64,000 nt of DNA from assembly GCA_951406725.2 (NCBI GenBank), contig OX597819.1, positions 86,490,001 through 86,554,000 of the forward strand, in the 5' to 3' direction. This DNA comes from Octopus vulgaris. Its lineage: Eukaryota. This document shows, piece by piece, positions 2,943 through 36,067 of the stretch; position 1 is the first letter of the stretch; the number at the start of each line of letters is the position of its first letter. The notes beneath the pieces are model-generated. The model was not told where the DNA came from. It saw only the letters and a list, made by a program, of their open reading frames with translations, and searched no databases. The translations under genes and the position numbers were made by a program.

Positions 2943-3828
2943 CACACATGCTAATAGGAGTATACAGTATTATAAATCCACTACAGCTGATCATACCAGT
3001 TTCACACTGAATGTTAGGTAACTGGACATATGCTCCTCAAGGATGGCTGGTATGGAAAATGTATAGAAACTTTCCATACTTGCCATTCTTGAAGATAATG
3101 ACAATATATACATAGATACATGTGTGTGTGTATGTTGTAACTTATTTGACAATTATATGAATTCTTTTATAAAAGCACAAACACATTAACTAAGAAATTT
3201 TTTATGACGACAATTGCCTAATGCACCTGTAATTTCAATATCCTTTTATGTTGGATTATTACTATCATGTTTTTTATAGCATAACATTTTAGTAGGTTGT
3301 TTGTTGACAGTTGCACTAGCTTACCTGGTTTTTAGAGCAGGTGTGTTTATTTATCATGATGAAAACAAAACATACAAAAAACAAACAAATACAAATCATT
3401 ATTGTTCCAAAACTTATTCACAGTTGTCAAGATATAGATACCTGTTTTGTAAATAACTATTTATAAGGAGAAAGCTACAGCCATGGTTATGTGGTTAGGA
3501 AGTTTGCTTCCCAACTACATGGTTTTGAGTTCAGTCCCACCATGTGTGACCATGGTAAAGTGCCTTCTACTTTAGCTCTGGGCCAACCAAAAGCTTTATG
3601 AGTGAATTTGGTTGCAAGAAAAGGTGAAATGCCTTTTATGTGTTTGTGTGCATGCAAGGGTAAGTATGCATTTGTGTCTTTTTGTCTTGATGTCACACAA
3701 TAGTTGTAAACAAGTGACAATATTAGAAGCAGATTTATTTATTTCAAACTTTCTGTTGAAACATCTGGGCATGGAAAAATATGATCTTGTTTGGAAATAG
3801 AGGACAATTGGTGACAGGAAGGGCATCC

Positions 3829-17031: not shown

Positions 17032-17494
17032 CATCATCATCATCGTTTAGTGACCGCTTTCCATGCTAGCATGAGTTGGACGGTTCAACTGGGGTCTGTG
17101 AAGCCAGAAGGCTGCATCAGACCCAGTCTGATCTGGCAGTGTTTCTACGGCTGGATGCCCTTCCTAACGTCAACCACTCCGTGAGTGTAGTGGGTGCTTT
17201 TTACGTGCCACCGGCCACGATCGGATGGTGCTTTTTACGTGCCACTGGCACGGGGGCCAGGCAAGGCTGGCAACGGCCACGAACGGATGGTGCTTTTTAT
17301 GTGTCACCGGCACGGAGGCCAGTAGGGGCGGCACTGGCAACAGCCACGATCGGATGGTTCGCTTACTTCCGATTGTGGCCATTGCCAGCACCGCCCCGAC
17401 TGGCCTCCGTGCCGGTGACATGTAAAAAGCACCATCCGTTCGTGGCCGTTGCCAGCCTTGCCTGGCCCCCGTGCCGGTGGCACGTAAAAAGCAC
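17032..17494 (-). mobile_element. RTE-LINE 3' fragment ending in a foldback
   Basis: (CAT)n tail at 17032 and ~63-bp UTR repeats. 17228-17355 is inverted at 17368-17494. Confidence 0.85.
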
Positions 17495-17519
17495 ATATAT
17501 ATATATATATATATATATC

Positions 17520-18600
17520 TGTAAATGTAATATATAACAATTATTCAGTAGCCAAGATAAAACTCCGAGTTTCGGATGCCGAAGTGGAAATCCACGCCAC
17601 CATCTCTTCAGTTATCCGGCCATCGGAAAAACGCTATGAAAAATTACCGTTATACAAAGGGAAATTACTGAGTTATTGACTGCTATAAGACAAAAGAGCT
17701 ATTCGAATGGCCGCTAATTAAGGTAAGGGGGTAAAAAGTTCATAGTATTCACGTAAGCGCACTTGTTCATACCTACACATGTGCGCCCGCACACCCACAT
17801 GTGTACGCATACATTCATCCACCCTCACTAGAAAAACGTACACATATTCACTCATATCCTTCACTAAATGTATATGCATATACATACAAACCCACACACA
17901 CACACACGTGCACTGTAAAAGTTCATACATACGTCTAAATACGCACAAGCACAAGAAAAAACAGGGTTATGGGTAACAATACAGAAAAAAGGCATAAGGA
18001 AGTATACAAACAGTAAACCACGCTTATATATACACATACCCTTATGCACACACACACGCTCATATACGCACATACCCACACACGTCTAAATACGCACACA
18101 AATACAAAAAAGGATTATACATACATCTAAAAAAAAAAATGTGTAAAAACCGAGTAAAATACGTTTATATACGCACATACTCGCATGCATGCACACATCT
18201 ATATACACACATACCTGTACTTACACACACATCCACACTCGCACACAAAAGATTCCGTATACATGTCTATATAGGCACAGGGAAAAATACAGGGTGGAAG
18301 GTAGAATACAGAAAAACTTATGTGTAAAAAAAATATAACTATAAACCACATTCTCTATAATATGTAAGAAATATATGTATAAAAAATATAAATAAAATAA
18401 AAGTAAAAGGTATAATGAGATAAAAAAAACTTGTGCGTGGACACAATATAGAAAGCAAGTTCTATCTGTAGTCTTGGGGGGACCAAAAGCGTGACAAAAA
18501 TTTGGTGACATATGGACATGACCCGAAAAGTTCTGTCCTTGAGTTCAGACATGTAGCAGGGTCTAAGCTGCTTTTCCAGATGAGCCATCTTTCCATGGCA
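17520..18600 (-). mobile_element. 5'-truncated Penelope-like element 3' end (GIY-YIG C-terminus, UTR, hammerhead)
   Basis: 18600-18462 encodes MERWLIWKSSLDPATCLNSRTELFGSCPYVTKFL, resembling the PLE endonuclease tail E..I......LNxRxE...C. Hammerhead near the 3' end and TA-rich flanks on both sides. Confidence 0.75.
17551..17620 (-). ncRNA. Type I hammerhead ribozyme
   Basis: Minus strand reads GCCGGATAA-CTGAAGA-GATG(...GTGGatttCCAC...)CATCC-GAAA-CTCGGAG-TT-TTATCTTGGC. Core boxes intact, stem I 9 bp with a bulge, GUU triplet. Confidence 0.75.
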
Positions 18601-26810: not shown

Positions 26811-29135
26811 CCATCATCACCATCATCGTTTAACATCTGCTTTCCATACTGGCATGGGTTGACTGAAGGCTGGCGAGCCAGAAGGCTGGCGAGCCAGAAG
26901 GCTGGCGAGCCAGAAGGCTGCATCAGGCTCCTATCTGATCTGGCAAAGTTTCTACAGCTGGATGCCCTTTCTAATGCCAACAACTTTGTGAGTGTAGTGG
27001 GTGCTTTTTACGTGCAACCAGCATGAGGGCCAGTCTGGCGGTACTAGCATCGGCCACACTCAAATGGTGCTTTTTACATGCCACCTGCACAGGAGCCCAG
27101 TCAGGTGATACTGGTAATGATCACGCTTGAATGGTGCTTTTTACATGCCACTGGCATGGGAACCAGTCAGGTGGTACTGGTAACGATCATGCTTGAATGG
27201 AGTTTCTGACGTTCAACTGGCACAGGTGCCAATCAGACGGTACTGTCATCGGCCATGACAATGATTTCACTTGCCTCAACAGATCTTTGCAAGTGCAGTT
27301 TATTGCCCAATGATTGAAGGGTACTCTTAAATGGGCTGATCATACAGCACTGGCATAGGCCACAGTTATAGTTGGCTTGCCAGGTCTTCTCAAGCACAGC
27401 ATATCTCCAAAGGTTTCAGTCACTTGTCGTTGCCACGGTGAGGCCCAATGTTCTAAGGTCATGCTTTACCACCTCATACCAGGTCTTCCTGGGTTTACCT
27501 TTTCCACAGATTCCCTCAACGGCTGGTGTGTGACACTTTTTCACACAGCTGTCTTCATCCATTCGCAACACATGACCATACTAACGCAGTCATCTCTCTT
27601 GCACACCACATCTGATGCTTCTTAGATCCAACTTTTCTCTCACATCCAGTGGAGCATACTGACTTCATTCCTTGCAAGCTTATGCATGTCCTCAGCAGTG
27701 ATGGCCCCTGTTTCACTGCCATGTAGCATGGCTGTTCACACACATGCATCATACAGTCTAACTTTTACTCTGAGCAAGAGGCTCTTTGTCACCAGCAGAA
27801 GTAGGTGCTCTTTGAACTTTGCCCAGGCTATTCTTATTCTAGCAGCTACACTTTCAGAACATCCATCCGCACAACTGATTTGGTCACCTAGGTAACGGAA
27901 GCTATCAACGACTTATAGTTTTTTTCCCTGGAATGTGACGGAAGGTGTTCTCTGCACATTTTCAGTATTTATTGCTCCTGCACATTTGCCACACACACAA
28001 ACTATCTTCCCAGTTAGCTTTCCTGTGATATTGCTGTTAGCCTTCCTGTGATATTGTTGCACCTTTTATGTGTCCATAGCTTACACTGGGTACATCTTAT
28101 GGAGTTTCTACCTACGCCTTTTCTACAGATCAAGCAGAGCCATCTACCTGAAGGGATTTGTGGTTTGTTTGGCTTCCTACTTATTAAGACTTTGGTTTTA
28201 GCTAGGTTGACTCTGAGGCCCTTCGATTCTAATTCTTGTTTGCACACCTGAAACTTCTCCTCTCATTCTGATAGTGACTCAGCAATTAGAGCAAGGTCAT
28301 CAGCATAGAGAAGCTCCCAGAAGCATCCTGTCTGGAATTCCTCTGTTATTGCTTGGAGGACTATGATGAATAAGAGGGAGCAGAGGAGTGATCCTTGGTG
28401 GACCACTACCCCTACCTGGAATTTTTCACTGTACTCATTGCCAACCCTCACCTTACTGACAGCAACCCTGTACATTGCTTGTACAGCTCTCACTAACCAG
28501 TAATCCATCCCTAGTCTCCTCATTGACCACCAGATAAGGGATCGGGGGACCCTGTCAAAGGCTTTCTCCATGTCAATGAAAGCCAGGTGTGAGGTTTATC
28601 TTTGACTAGGTATTTCTCCTGCAGCTGTCTTACCAGAAATATAGCATCAGAGGTGCTTTTTCCTGGCACAAACCCAAACTGCATCTCGTCTAGATTGACT
28701 CTCTCCCTAATTAGTCTCCAAGACTTTCATTACCTGATCCAATAACCTGATACCTCTGTAATTATTTGTATCTAAAGCATCACCTTTCCCTTTGTAGCAG
28801 TTGACTATGGTGCTGCTACACCAGTCATTGGTTATGATTCCTTCATGCATCACCTGATTAATTATACGGGTGACTAGAATATAGCCTACACCGCCAGATA
28901 TTTTAAGCATCTCAGTGGTGATTCCTGATGGGCCAGGAGCTTTCCCTGTCTTCATACCCTTAATTGCTTTATCTACCAAGGTACTGTCAATTCGGATAGC
29001 TGGTCCCTCTGTTGGGTCAACGTTCGGCAGACTCTCTTTCTCCCATTCATTCTCTTCATTTAGCAACCTTTCATAGTGGCATCTCCAAGTCTCTCTCCTT
29101 GCAGCCTCATTAAATTCAAGTGAGCTGTCATCCAT
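26811..29135 (-). mobile_element. 5'-truncated RTE-clade LINE (RT pseudogene, 3' UTR, GAT tail)
   Basis: KAPGPSG, NYRGIRLL, EKAFDRVP, VHQGSLLCSLLF, LLYADDL, GLRVNLAKTK, then the 3' UTR shared by the many short copies. Confidence 0.92.
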
Positions 29136-29139
29136 ACAG

Positions 29140-29186
<47 letters not shown>

Positions 29187-29988
29187 CATATATGCACATA
29201 TACACACACACACATATATCTATAGACACAAACACATGTATTGTATTATCATTGCTGCTTCATTCAAAACAAGAAAAAATATAATTAGCATACTAGACCT
29301 TTTATTGGTAATGTTATGAATTTACACCCACCACGAAAGTAAATTTCAAGAAAGTATAAAACTAGTTTAGTCTTTAGCATATTCTTTAATTTATAAAGCC
29401 TAGCTTTTCTACTTTTGGACAACATATGAATAATATAGTAAGAAAACGGTCACTTAGTTCGTTAGAATTAGCAATGAACAGAGAAAATAGTTGGTGGTGG
29501 TGGTGGTGGTGGGGTGTATCAGAGAGATATTTAAAGCAAAACTTATATTTGCTTTGCTTGCCAGTAAAAATAGACTGTTCAATAACAGAAAATTAGTTCG
29601 AACTCTAAAACAAGGCTGATAATTTACATGCAAGCAAAAATAACTAAAAATTTTTTAAATAGTAAAGAAAAAGAAAAACAACTTAAGTATACAATGATTT
29701 TGCAGAAAATAAAATTCACTTGAAAAAATTCAGATTAACTGTTTATAAATAGACAAAAATTATATTTTGAATTGCAAAGAAGTAGCACACATGTACTTTT
29801 TCTCAAGAAAAAATGACACAAAACTCAAGTAATTAATGATTGGAAGGCTTCCTAATTGATATCATGTTTACAAGTCTAATCATAACAATAAGAATGTTCA
29901 TTTATAGAAAATAATTGTTTAATTATATGAAACCTGCACTCATTGATCATACTCTAGAAAATTCCTTTTTTTGAAACTAGAAATGATT

Positions 29989-30019
<31 letters not shown>

Positions 30020-30049
30020 GCGAGAAAGAAGCAACAAGAATGGATAGGT

Positions 30050-30140
30050 TTTTAGTACAATCGTTTCATACAAGGACAGGCTTTATTAAAAGTTGCAAAA
30101 ATTGCAGCATATAAACGTGTCCCGTACTCATCAGCTAAAA
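30050..30140 (-). ncRNA. Type I hammerhead ribozyme (copy sense to the PLE ORF)
   Basis: Reverse complement of 35778-35868. Confidence 0.8.
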
Positions 30141-31619
30141 TACATGTGAGTTCTCTAGACATCCTAGTGGTTGAGGCTATACTCATGAAGTAATGTAGAT
30201 AATTAAGTAACATAAACAGATTTCCAAAGTTCATTAAAGTTCTTTAAAGATGGTGTACAGTCTTATCACAGAATTTTAAAAAAAGTTTCAATAGCATCAC
30301 AGAGAAGGTGACTTAATCCATAGTGTACATATGAATTTCCAGAGATATGAGGAGGGATTAAATACTCACAGACGACAAATTTATCCATTGTTAATCACAA
30401 CGAGGTGGGTCTCAATTCCGGCTTATTAGCATTACAGAGAGGGTGAATTAATCCTTTGTATAGATGCACAATTTCCAATGGTGTAGATGTAAATTTCCAG
30501 AGAAATGAAGAGGAATTTCATATTCACAGGCAATAAATTTATCAATGGTTGAACACAATGAGGTAGGTATCAATTCTTGCTATATGATTAGGTATTTGCC
30601 ACATTAATCACATTACTGCTATTTACAAGAGACTGTAGCTATTTAACTTTTAAAGGCTGAAGGGCTTTCTAGAGAGGCAAAGAACAGAAAAGGGAAGGAA
30701 AGAGAAGAAAAGAGAGAAAATAAAGGAGGAGGGAGCAAAAGGGGTGGGGGACTAAAAGAGAAGAGAAAAGGAAAAAGAAAAAAAGAAAAAGAGAATAAGA
30801 AGAAGAGAAAGAAAAAGAGAAAAGAGAAAGAAATAGGGAAAGAAGGGAAAAAAAGAAAAAGAAAAAAAGATAGTTCTAGTTATACAGAAGAATTAGTAGA
30901 CGACAAGTCTGGTTTTAATTTACAGGCATCTAGGAACTAGAGGAGAATATTATTCTTTGACCAGTAAAACAGCTAATTTATTGCTGTTGAAAGCAGCTAT
31001 GAATTTAAAGAGAATCTAAAGAGATAACACGGTCAGGGGTTTAGGGGTCAAAGGCTAAAATCAAAAGAAAATACATTAGGAAAATCTAAGTATAATCTTA
31101 TCAAAAAGTCATTAAAATTTATTTATTTAATTTATTCATTTTACTGTCTTAAGGAGTTGCTGTTATTATTCATACATTGACGGACTACAGGTCAAATCTT
31201 AGAAGATCATTTACAAGGTGTTAGGGAATTGTCTATCATAATGAAGATAATCATATTATTACCGAGGGAGTAGCCTTATTTATTTAATTTTGAAATAGAA
31301 TTATGGGGCTTTATTAACTCATTTTATTTTATTAAAGTTATGCTACTTAAATTAGATTAAGTTAAGAATTAAAATTAAAAATTAAAAATTAAAATTAAGA
31401 TTTAAAATTAAGATTTAAAATTATGAGTTTGAAAATTAAATAAAGCCTCAATTAAGCAGCGTATAAGTACTATTCATTTCCCTGTTCTCAAAAAACTGAT
31501 GCAGATATAAGGAAAAAGATAACTGTAGTGTGAGAACTCTTAGTTATCTACTTAAAGTAGTGCTATACTAGTAAAAATCAAGTTATATCTATCTATCTAT
31601 CTAGTTACGAATATTCTAA

Positions 31620-33886
31620 TCATTTAAAATATTTTAAAGTCTTCAATTTAGCGTGGACACAAACTTGACCTAGTTTGATATGGTTATTCAATAAGTTTCT
31701 ATGTTTTCTATGCTTTAGAATTTCATACGTCTCCATGGAGCATAGTTGGCAACCAACCCTGCTATTTTTATACGGAATTGCTCTCCTAACTATTTCTCAA
31801 TTAAGGTTATAATTATTATTATTATTTTTGAGTTCCCAGATTTTGTTTGAAAGTGTGGTGGTACCAGCTTTATGACGTAATTTAAAAGACGAGATGTGAT
31901 TTCTAACTCTGGCTAGAAAATTAATTGTACATCCAATGTAAAAATATTTGTTATTCTCCGTGGATATGGTACATTTATAGATTACATTATTTTCCCCGCA
32001 TAGACCAGGTGCCGGGCATTTTGATTTTATTCTACACTTACACACAGGAGGAACAACTTCAGGTTTTGGATTATTCTTGGGTAGATGTCTTAGGTTCCTA
32101 TTGTTTTGATTATCATGAGTATAATTGTCCTTATTGTTATTAATATTTCTATAGTTGGTGCTGATATCTAAAGTATTGCTATTATTTATTGATCCTTCTG
32201 TTTCATCTTTTAGGTCTAAAGTCCTACCATGATTTCTTATATTATTGGTAATGTTACTATTATTGTTAGTCTTTTTATCCGACTGCATATTGTTGTTATA
32301 GATATCACTGATATTTTCATTCTCCTTATTTTCACCATTAGCCTTATTTCTATTATTTCTATTATTAACATTATTACTTCTATTAATATCTGTATTGCTA
32401 TTATTACTATTAAAGTTAATGTTATTAGTCATTCTGTGGTTACTAATTTCACCCATGTTTTGATAGTTACTATTGCTGTTTTTATTGTTGGTAGTATTAT
32501 TATAATTGCTATTGGTATTCATGCTGATATTATTATTTTTATTTCTATCTTTCCTGGCTAGTTTAATGTTGTTATTATTAATCTTAGCTATTAAAGTGGA
32601 CATATTTGGGAGGGTTGAATAAGAAATCCTAACTGTTTTCCTAGAAATAATTCTATGATATCTATGAGAGATTGGGAAATTTTTTCCAGAATTACTTTGA
32701 ATTTGTTCTGTATATCCGATTGTATCGCACAGTTGAAAGGAATATTCAGCCATAATATATCGTTTTTATTAAATTTAGGGTTCGTAGAATTATTACTATT
32801 CATCTCACCGGAGTTATTGTATTTATTACCATTATTTTTATTTTTATTTGTGTGCATCTTTGGTTTATCTACTTCGATATTATCCGAGTTACCTATGTTC
32901 TGGTCAATGCTTCTATTTGAATTGTTGGGCCTGTACGTTAGATTAGCGTTTACCGTTAATTCAATTCTACTTTTATTTCGGGCTTGGTTTGTATTGCTGC
33001 TTACGTGATTACTGATAACTTCTTTATTAGGAATACGTGAGTTCTCCTTATCAACGAATGTAATCTTTTGGTTGTATCCAGCCTTAGTTAACGCCGCATT
33101 ATAATGCTCAGAATGGGAGTTAAATATATCCTTATTGGATGATAATTTTGAAATTCTTAATGAAATATTTCTTACTAAAGATTCAATTATATTTGGGGGA
33201 TGATTTGATAATTTATTTACATAATTCGTGATGTCGCCTTCCTTTCTAAATGGGTAATGCAGCTTGGAGTTAAGGTCTAGCGTAATATCTAGGAAGTTAA
33301 CTATTTTAGTGCCCGGTTCATACGTTATACTGAGGTTGAAATCCTTAAAGAACTTATTAATTTTCTTTCTAATCCTTTCTATAACAGATTTATTATTACT
33401 AGGGATAACAAACAGAGCATCATCCCTATATAGACCCCCCTGTATTTCTGGGATATCCTTGCTTATGCATTTTAATAGATATGCGCCTACTAGGTTGGTT
33501 ACCTCAGCCGAATCACTGGAACCCATTGGTATATCAAAATAATTAGGTGTATCTGCTCTAGTCCATAATTTATCTTCAAATTCTATAAATGTCTTCCTAG
33601 CTAGTAGCACAATATTGATTTCTTCTCTAGATATGAGGGAGCGATTCATGGCAAATATTAGTGATTTGTTGAGTAAGATAGGGGAAATACTAGAGTAATA
33701 ACTATTAATATCGAACTGGATAAAGAACAGACTGCTAGTATTAGTTAGAGAGTTAAACCATTTTAGAACTTCGTCCGTACTTAGCCATAGGTTTAAGGGG
33801 AGAAGAGGGGTTATTTGGGGTAGAACAGTATCCAGGATAGATTTACTAAGTCGGCCAATGTCCGACTTAGTTGGACAGATCAGCCT
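31620..33886 (-). pseudogene. PLE polyprotein: reverse transcriptase plus GIY-YIG endonuclease (N-terminus missing)
   Basis: RLICPTKSDIG, QFDINSYYSSI, FDIPMGSSDS, GLYRDDAL, VNFLDITLDL, SNHPP, then CKCR..CP..G.C, VIYKC...YIG, R..NH. One frameshift near 32680 and one premature TGA at 31797-31799. Confidence 0.92.
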
Positions 33887-33888
33887 GA

Positions 33889-34299
33889 ATAAAATCAAAA
33901 TGCCCGGCACCTGGTCTATGCGGGGAAAATAATGTAATCTATAAATGTACCATATCCACGGAGAATAACAAATATTTTTACATTGGATGTACAATTAATT
34001 TTCTAGCCAGAGTTAGAAATCACATCTCGTCTTTTAAATTACGTCATAAAGCTGGTACCACCACACTTTCAAACAAAATCTGGGAACTCAAAAATAATAA
34101 TAATAATTATAACCTTAATTGGGAAATAGTTAGGAGAGCAATTCCGTATAAAAATAGCAGGGTTGGTTGCCAACTATGCTCCATGGAGACGTATGAAATT
34201 CTAAAGCATAGAAAACATAGAAACTTATTGAATAACCATATCAAACTAGGTCAAGTTTGTGTCCACGCTAAATTGAAGACTTTAAAATATTTTAAATGA
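33889..34299 (+). pseudogene. Stop-free duplicate of the GIY-YIG domain in the inverted arm (no N-terminal start)
   Basis: IKSKCPAPGLCGENNVIYKC...YFYIGCT...NLNWEIVRRAIPY...CQLCSMETYEI...LLN...CVHAKLKTLKYFK*. Confidence 0.85.
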
Positions 34300-35777
34300 T
34301 TAGAATATTCGTAACTAGATAGATAGATAGATATAACTTGATTTTTACTAGTATAGCACTACTTTAAGTAGATAACTAAGAGTTCTCACACTACAGTTAT
34401 CTTTTTCCTTATATCTGCATCAGTTTTTTGAGAACAGGGAAATGAATAGTACTTATACGCTGCTTAATTGAGGCTTTATTTAATTTTCAAACTCATAATT
34501 TTAAATCTTAATTTTAAATCTTAATTTTAATTTTTAATTTTTAATTTTAATTCTTAACTTAATCTAATTTAAGTAGCATAACTTTAATAAAATAAAATGA
34601 GTTAATAAAGCCCCATAATTCTATTTCAAAATTAAATAAATAAGGCTACTCCCTCGGTAATAATATGATTATCTTCATTATGATAGACAATTCCCTAACA
34701 CCTTGTAAATGATCTTCTAAGATTTGACCTGTAGTCCGTCAATGTATGAATAATAACAGCAACTCCTTAAGACAGTAAAATGAATAAATTAAATAAATAA
34801 ATTTTAATGACTTTTTGATAAGATTATACTTAGATTTTCCTAATGTATTTTCTTTTGATTTTAGCCTTTGACCCCTAAACCCCTGACCGTGTTATCTCTT
34901 TAGATTCTCTTTAAATTCATAGCTGCTTTCAACAGCAATAAATTAGCTGTTTTACTGGTCAAAGAATAATATTCTCCTCTAGTTCCTAGATGCCTGTAAA
35001 TTAAAACCAGACTTGTCGTCTACTAATTCTTCTGTATAACTAGAACTATCTTTTTTTCTTTTTCTTTTTTTCCCTTCTTTCCCTATTTCTTTCTCTTTTC
35101 TCTTTTTTCTTTCTCTTCTTCTTATTCTCTTTTTCTTTTTTTCTTTTTCCTTTTCTCTTCTCTTTTAGTCCCCCACCCCTTTTGCTCCCTCCTCCTTTAT
35201 TTTCTCTCTTTTCTTCTCTTTCCTTCCCTTTTCTATTCTTTGCCTCTCTAGAAAGCCCTTCAGCCTTTAAAAGTTAAATAGCTACAGTCTCTTGTAAATA
35301 GCAGTAATGTGATTAATGTGGCAAATACCTAATCATATAGCAAGAATTGATACCTACCTCATTGTGTTCAACCATTGATAAATTTATCGCCTGTGAATAT
35401 GAAATTCCTCTTCATTTCTCTGGAAATTTACATCTACACCATTGGAAATTGTGCATCTATACAAAGGATTAATTCACCCTCTCTGTAATGCTAATAAGCC
35501 GGAATTGAGACCCACCTCGTTGTGATTAACAATGGATAAATTTGTCGTCTGTGAGTATTTAATCCCTCCTCATATCTCTGGAAATTCATATGTACACTAT
35601 GGATTAAGTCACCTTCTCTGTGATGCTATTGAAACTTTTTAAAATTCTGTGATAAGACTGTACACCATCTTTAAAGAACTTTAATGAACTTTGGAAATCT
35701 GTTTATGTTACTTAATTATCTACATTACTTCATGAGTATAGCCTCAACCACTAGGATGTCTAGAGAACTCACATGTA

Positions 35778-35868
35778 TTTTAGCTGATGAGTACGGGACA
35801 CGTTTATATGCTGCAATTTTTGCAACTTTTAATAAAGCCTGTCCTTGTATGAAACGATTGTACTAAAA
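35778..35868 (+). ncRNA. Type I hammerhead ribozyme with extended stem II
   Basis: TTTTAG-CTGATGA-GTACGGGACA(39 nt)TGTCCTTGTAT-GAAA-CGATTG-TA-CTAAAA. Stem I 6 bp, stem II ~10 bp, minimal stem III, GUA triplet at 35860-35862. Confidence 0.8.
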
Positions 35869-36013
35869 ACCTATCCATTCTTGTTGCTTCTTTCTCGCTT
35901 ATAATCACCCCACATTACTGTATTGTTAAAACCGTATAGTTTTTTGGTGCATCTAAGTTAGGTACCATATTCAAGTAAATTCATTTAAATTAACTTGAAT
36001 CTTTATTGCTTTT

Positions 36014-36067
<54 letters not shown>

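Follow-up and report, generated by a model that had tools for sequence, protein, structure and literature searches.

We identified a type I hammerhead motif in Octopus vulgaris whose stem II is extended into a 60-nt rod, and found that this long-armed form makes up the majority of genomic hammerhead pattern matches of its stem III type. The motif lies at 35778-35868 (plus strand) of the window, the 64,000-nt stretch of DNA analyzed here, within the terminal repeat of a broken Penelope-like element (PLE) of the Hydra clade. Comparison of related families indicates that the pairing of stem I, of basal stem II and of the hairpin at the tip of the rod is conserved. The reading we favor, to which we give an even chance, is that the motif acts as a dimer and that the rod likely docks the element's own reverse transcriptase (RT)-endonuclease (EN) protein.

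The motif opens with the 5' strand of stem I (TTTTAG, 35778-35783), which forms 6 bp with CTAAAA at 35863-35868. The type I core CUGANGA...GAAA...UH is complete (35784-35790, 35851-35854 and 35861-35862): read from the sequence, CUGAUGA occupies 35784-35790, GAA 35851-35853, A15.1 35854 and the GUA triplet 35860-35862. GAA, the self-complementary stem III ACGAUUGU and A17 together span 35851-35862, and the cut is predicted to fall after 35862. A preliminary description had listed an intact CUGAUGA/GAAA core, a GUA site, a 6-bp stem I and a two-pair stem III around GAUU, all of which read as it stated. Domain II (35791-35850, 60 nt) consists of a basal helix, an irregular middle helix and an apical hairpin. 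The basal stem II helix (35791-35800/35840-35850) has the 10 bp originally claimed but is imperfect: a U is bulged out and two of the pairs are G-U, one of them G10.1-U11.1 at the base. The inner 39 nt had been taken for a cap loop; folding instead gives an irregular bulged rod capped by the TGCAA/TTGCA hairpin of the same description (35812-35816 with 35820-35824, 3-nt loop between). The full apical hairpin (35810-35826) has 7 bp and a 3-nt loop; its one C-A mismatch in the window family is C-G, U-A or A-U in relatives. The arm's 3' strand contains AATAAA (35831-35836), a candidate poly(A) signal 26 nt before the cut.

The folding energy of the 91-mer is unremarkable (z = -0.32; z = -1.97 for 35791-35851 alone). 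The hammerhead fold lies 1-2 kcal/mol above a minimum-energy structure in which the core is mispaired, and when flanks are included CUGAUGAG pairs upstream. No candidate for a tertiary contact between loops I and II was seen by eye. A chance origin of the motif can be rejected, as the descriptor gave 0 matches in 2.3 Mb of shuffled loci (7 in 6 Mb at looser settings) and a genome search with the exact family pattern gave 1,348 matches versus 0 in a reversed control.

The surrounding insertion is a broken Hydra-clade PLE (30015-35903) with hammerheads in its 2-kb inverted ends. One end is a 3' pseudo-LTR (pLTR; 30015-32032, minus strand) that comprises the end of the EN coding region, the 3' UTR and a hammerhead, and abuts (TA)n. 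The other is an inverted copy of this 3' end (33887-35903, plus strand), identical at 2012 of 2016 aligned bases. The RT and GIY-YIG open reading frame (31797-33886, minus strand) is 5'-truncated, starting near codon 203 of 957, and frameshifted, with a premature stop in EN. It retains the motifs CKCRIKSKC, CQLC and CVH, and its only Pfam match is a weak one to RVT_1 (E 0.0015). At 30050-30140 (minus strand) a hammerhead copy with 0 differences is sense to this ORF, with the 3' end of the element about 35 nt away. The 35778 copy is antisense to the ORF, a placement that the preliminary description had not mentioned. Inverted arms are described as typical of PLE insertions (PMC8557442); since the 35778 copy lies in the inverted arm and the ORF sense is carried by 30140-30050, we regard it as part of such an arm. 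A 'tail' of about 113 nt (35904-36016, plus strand) corresponds to the 5' UTR of the next tandem unit, is followed by (TA)n and fits the second of two preferred family 3' ends; it starts at an AC-rich stretch. Being within a broken insertion, the 35778 copy likely does no work, and a transcript across both arms would lock it in a 2-kb duplex with its exact complement. Two further features were seen nearby: a 104-nt sequence present twice (80% identity between the copies, 158 nt between them) in the pLTR just upstream of the hammerhead (35339-35600, mirrored at 30320-30581), and, just left of the PLE, a fragment that by eye is a LINE-type RT ORF (28707-29219, minus strand).

Intact family members encode a 957-aa protein with RWK, DKT, CxCx5C and CxxC-E-N-CxH motifs and sit in (TA)n, as do most copies of the family and both ends of the element in the window. 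IRWKTY and PADKTGN are present in the intact loci L106-L110, and the C-terminal GIY-YIG EN has the CxCx5C linker, CxxC and CxH and, judged by eye, lacks CCHH. These motifs and (TA)n targets are marks of the Hydra clade in the account of PMC8557442, and on these features we assign the family to that clade. The family is young: its 40 best copies are 98-100% identical, and the 1,348 exact matches belong to it. Tandem hammerhead pairs occur in L106, L107, L110 and L310; the pair in L106 is separated by 4,650 nt, and its upstream cut site precedes the ATG by about 210 nt. The intact ORF of L106 (3377-6247) exceeds most metagenome relatives by about 250 aa and has Asn-rich stretches in the thumb and linker, and the 3' UTR of this copy is about 1.6 kb. 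A piece of an ankyrin-repeat gene model of Octopus sinensis (P0018) is 70% identical to the element's RT and may reflect either an artefact of annotation or the exonisation of a copy. No relatives were found among viral contigs.

Family copies end at two preferred places past the cut site. Among 82 distinct 3' contexts, the end falls at +35 to +41 in 31 and at +149 to +157 in 40, with 7 elsewhere and 4 with no end in view. The RNA that was copied thus appears to have been uncut, or re-joined, at the cut site, and reverse transcription likely starts at the two preferred places. In the lizard PLE Poseidon PAc (Anolis) two internal RT start sites define the tail (PMC11167929). The two octopus 3' ends match this two-start signature, with a longer tail in octopus, and in both elements the hammerhead lies shortly upstream of the start sites (PMC11167929).

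Copies within the window family are 98-100% identical and thus uninformative about covariation. From 163 motifs that share the downstream CTTGTTGCTT tail we obtained 29 clusters at 94% identity, 23 of which were aligned (A1); the six left out were chimeric joins, carried large indels or nearly duplicated another cluster. CUGAnGA is invariant in 23/23 rows, a feature imposed by the search pattern. The named structure pairs 89.5% of cells versus 80.6% in shuffled alignments (0/500 as high), and slid controls pair 27-54%. Four of the six stem I pairs have changes on both sides. Unaided RNAalifold recovers stem I, six basal stem II pairs and the 7-bp apical hairpin; it mispairs the core and gives no middle helix.

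A tree-aware test on A1 counted about 57 changes at paired sites, 71% of which keep the pair versus 42% under a null built from the alignment's own substitution spectrum. At the level of single helices, pair-keeping changes amount to 66% versus 39% for the apical hairpin (p=0.017), 66% versus 43% for basal stem II (p=0.0095) and 69% versus 43% for stem I (p=0.04). Three helices, with stem I open, are thus backed by helix-level covariation, and single pairs mostly are not significant: an underpowered per-pair, R-scape-like test placed 1/21 pairs, in stem I, at E<0.05, and 13 of its 15 top-scoring pairs are not structure pairs. The pairing evidence is at helix level and comes from few independent events; the structure was drawn from the same sequences that were tested, and a pattern that imposes GTAC..GTAC supplied some of the basal-stem rows. 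The apical hairpin was imposed by no filter.

Hammerhead residue numbers and the roles of core residues are used here in their conventional sense. A G10.1-C11.1 closing pair is typical of type I hammerheads and is not universal, and G10.1-U11.1 together with an A-U-rich stem I suggests slow cleavage. Across the 23 rows of A1 the closing pair (column 17-77) is G-U in 7, G-C in 6, A-U in 1 and unpaired in 9, and published Hydra motifs vary in a like manner (PMC8557442).

Arm pairing extends to sequences with little likeness to the window family. A second long-arm group (A2, 18 hand-picked variants) has a 10-pair stem in which 5 pairs show two-sided changes, and RNAalifold finds no consensus apical hairpin in this group. 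Domain II of 59 cluster representatives has a median z of -2.3 (-1.2 with 6 nt trimmed from each side), and sequence upstream gives +0.13. Arm sequences differ widely, with no sequence motif shared between the arms of different families, and by eye A1 contains no conserved pairing of the arm with its flanks of the pseudoknot kind.

Stem III ACGAUUGU can form an 8-bp intermolecular duplex (-5.8 kcal/mol). PLE hammerheads have been described as having an unstable helix III and cleaving as dimers (PMC4209133). Genome-wide, the long-spacer pattern with a palindromic stem III, R..Y at its inner positions, has 36,568 matches (control 302), versus 1,145 (control 418) for R..R. The palindrome is thus a genome-wide feature and fits the dimer signature of PLE hammerheads. 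Since the R..Y pattern itself supplied many of the loci, the tree-aware value for stem III is in part circular. Further features of dimer-type PLE hammerheads are present, namely the short palindromic stem III itself, a location in the pLTR sense to the ORF (30140-30050, minus strand) and tandem copies.

The long-armed form is abundant. Spacers of 45-75 nt account for the 36,568 matches above, in dozens of families, and spacers of 8-37 nt for 11,396 (control 340), a ratio of about 3 to 1 among motifs of the same stem III type; these counts are restricted to the 8-nt stem III type and reflect pattern matches rather than verified folds, with altered-core copies outside the tally. Sixty ten-kb stretches at round coordinates, two of which adjoin the window, contained 15 motifs, 7 of them with a domain II above 50 nt (shuffle control for this descriptor scan: 7 in 6 Mb). 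Clustering at 88% identity sorts the motifs with arms of at least 43 nt in fetched loci into 59 clusters, of which a few are probably spurious. Several long-arm families adjoin Hydra-type ORFs, and some occur in 530-590-bp tandem arrays. Head-to-tail long-arm arrays of this kind, about 530-590 bp per unit and resembling non-LTR retrozymes, were seen on contig C1 of genome G000 at 5011305-5012441, 10836774-10838643, 13783445-13784583 and 16526555-16528224. The minus strand of another locus, L023, carries near its position 3042 (minus-strand count) a palindromic rod whose TGA..CTCGGAGT / GAAACTCTGAGT pieces give it the look of a rearranged hammerhead core.

A second hammerhead in the window (17551-17620) had been put forward as an unrelated motif that also has an enlarged stem II. 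It does belong to a different family, with a GUU triplet and stem III ACUCGGAGU, and lies on the minus strand; its domain II is only 31 nt long, barely above the 10-29 nt of the outgroups described below, and does not sustain the second part of the claim. A first look gave 3,931 genome candidates for this family, and a Hydra-type EN lies upstream of the motif in L053. Directly beside the second hammerhead, at 17200-17500, is an inverted pair of a GC-rich SINE-like repeat.

Metagenome relatives provide a short-armed comparison. Using a profile of 36 proteins, we took the best 78 of 495 metagenome loci and allowed a domain II of up to 130 nt. A hammerhead match was present in 53/78, all with arms of 10-29 nt (0/53 of at least 30 nt). 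In a quick tree, 8 long-arm RT rows from the octopus genome fall on one side of a branch and 48 metagenome rows on the other (SH-aLRT 100). The tree has a midpoint root and two long-branch rows, includes no other PLE clades and leaves out L256 and five short metagenome rows. Because of the root, the long branches and the confounding of host with arm length, the branch is compatible with one origin without showing one. The hammerhead of locus L337 reads like the published Penelope-1_NV motif, and the relatives used in the tree are all metagenome rows. The proposal of a lineage-specific architecture is supported by the tree and the arm lengths, host and arm length being confounded in the tree.

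The expectation that searches for short stems could miss this form was borne out. Rfam hammerhead models gave no match to the motif at the gathering score or at E up to 10, which is likely due to the arm and marks a detection limit rather than a class criterion. The published min-HHR descriptor, as given in PMC4209133, allows a stem II of 3-7 bp, a loop 2 of 3-10 nt and no loop 3, which limits the arm to near 26 nt. The statement that PLE hammerheads usually have a very short stem II was itself overstated, as several groups described in the same source have a helix II of 6-8 bp (PMC4209133).

In the mechanism that we propose, two RNA copies would pair through the self-complementary stem III, and cleavage is predicted only then. 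The product of dimer cleavage would be an RNA of unit length that contains the complete ORF and may be circularised. Reverse transcription likely starts at two places, 35-41 and 149-157 nt past the cut; the arm, which adjoins them, would help the protein to fold the ribozyme or to time it. Docking is suggested by the conserved distal hairpin, by the similar arm length in deep lineages and by the lizard PLE Poseidon PAc, where protein-assisted hammerhead cleavage has been demonstrated (PMC11167929). In that same element, RNA starting at +20, inside stem II, still supports insertion, and hammerhead mutants are without effect on insertion (PMC11167929), which argues against stem II as an essential binding site. 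The lack of a sequence motif common to the arms of different families also speaks against docking.

The main rival to docking is neutral expansion, in which an active dimer hammerhead has an arm without a job of its own: a permissive stem II would have gained AT-rich sequence in an ancestor, with pairing kept only for folding of the junction. We think this unlikely, though it is the strongest of the alternatives. It would readily account for arms that vary in length between 43 and about 100 nt and are unrelated in sequence across the 59 clusters, for the abundance of short-armed motifs in the same genome (11,396 versus 340), for single copies with duplications or deletions inside the arm and for a middle helix that changes register between families. 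It is harder to reconcile with the apical hairpin, which lies about 20 nt from the core and keeps both its pairing and its 3-nt loop, or with an arm length confined to 51-60 nt across three deep RT lineages. Within the long-arm RT group, moreover, no short-arm derivative was seen, the fetched short-arm loci L315-L317 having no placeable ORF.

A different role for the arm would be to house a poly(A) signal, so that the ribozyme and the 3'-end processing of the host would compete at almost the same position. In the window family group the start of AATAAA or ATTAAA lies 29-32 nt ahead of the cut (21/23 A1 rows), both lineage-fixed changes inside the hexamer yield ATTAAA, and a U/GU-rich CTTGTTGCTT follows the cut, but that tail was also the selection filter. 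Outside this group the pattern dissolves: among 46 long-arm clusters a hexamer lies at most 60 nt from the cut in 20 on the sense strand and 30 on the antisense, where shuffles expect 11.4, and in A2 the hexamer comes after the cut and outside the arm. A general poly(A)-signal role of the arm is thus unsupported across the 46 clusters. The A/T changes in the hexamer also fit pairing of the middle helix, and no loose poly(A) ends appear among the run-contig rows listed, which are contigs only. We consider this explanation improbable.

Least probable of all is a motif that no longer or hardly cleaves and is kept as a three-way recognition structure near the RT start sites, since the palindromic stem III is best explained by dimer catalysis and a full core with a cleavable NUH and this stem recurs genome-wide (36,568 versus 302, by a pattern that cannot count altered cores), even though genomic copies reach 35-157 nt beyond the cut site, the lizard PLE mainly uses uncleaved RNA as its template and yields no reads ending at the cut (PMC11167929), and PLE hammerheads are reported to be slow in vitro (PMC4209133).

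Contigs from sequencing runs that cover 35806-35877 show frequent A-to-G differences on the hammerhead sense strand (10 places in X3 and 11 in X8, without T-to-C; 1 in X11). A-to-G at 35854 (A15.1) and 35862 (A17) occurs in X1, X3, X6 and X8, and at 35852 in X8; among deep unlabelled runs there is none at 35854 or 35862 in X15 and X17, and none at 35852 in X15. One of the two comparisons of run contigs showed no joints, and the other a single skip, in a DNA run. The A-to-G pattern looks like A-to-I editing and might disable the ribozyme; we treat it as a lead only, the runs being guessed to be RNA from other individuals and unassignable to a genomic copy. A more far-reaching version of the docking reading would hold that the octopus Hydra-clade radiation turned stem II into a 50-80-nt protein-docking, cleavage-controlling domain, that this is the main hammerhead form in the genome and that the host switches it off by A-to-I editing of core adenosines. 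We consider this unlikely.

Hammerheads of PLEs, their dimer-type variant and the presence of Hydra elements in octopus were known before. As in the window family, the Hydra-clade hammerheads described in PMC8557442 lie on the sense strand near the 3' end and have a short palindromic stem III; they also tolerate a pair other than G-C at the base of stem II, with G-U in Penelope-13_HM, and their elements share ORF motifs and (TA)n targets with the window family. The Hydra motifs listed there, including Hydra-1_oBim from octopus, have a stem II of 3-7 bp and a loop 2 of 3-10 nt, whereas the window motif has a 60-nt domain II with an apical hairpin. The octopus unit is also longer (4.65 kb versus <3 kb), as is its tail (about 115 nt versus 30-40) (PMC8557442). 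The closest listed precedents for the arm are type I PLE motifs from spike mosses, PLE-X1_sMoe and PLE-X1_sTam, in which loop 2 is enlarged to 34 and 29 nt and marked as deviating; these are single EN-minus plant families, listed without covariation or copy-number analysis, whereas the octopus form comprises many families and tens of thousands of copies (PMC8557442).

Other described systems share parts of this picture. The minimal, palindromic hammerheads of metazoan PLEs resemble the window motif in their unstable helix III, predicted dimer activity and pLTR location, but their helix II reaches 6-8 bp at most in the account of PMC4209133, and the descriptor used there cannot match the window motif. 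In viral type I hammerheads, likewise, a 'long helix II' means one of 6-8 bp (PMC13725137). Poseidon PAc belongs to another PLE clade and its ORF starts inside stem II; protein-assisted cleavage, demonstrated there, is proposed here for octopus (PMC11167929). Non-LTR retrozymes of animals resemble the octopus motifs in that their type I hammerheads are very numerous (126,247 in axolotl), but the parts of these accounts considered here describe no long arm, and the window copy belongs to a coding PLE (PMC7229834; bioRxiv 10.64898/2026.07.22.740005). In the literature that we searched there was no account of a conserved 50-80-nt PLE hammerhead arm or of its abundance; Lunse et al. (PMC5785218) and Arkhipova et al. 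(PMC5850863) may list long-arm variants.

The window copy itself is an inert-looking transposon remnant, and the interest of the finding lies in the family around it. Censuses that use short-stem descriptors can miss the majority hammerhead form of an animal genome. Published accounts describe the role of the hammerhead in PLEs as still open (PMC8557442; PMC11167929). The octopus family is young, has intact ORFs and tandem copies, and carries a large arm that can be removed, which offers a direct handle on that role.
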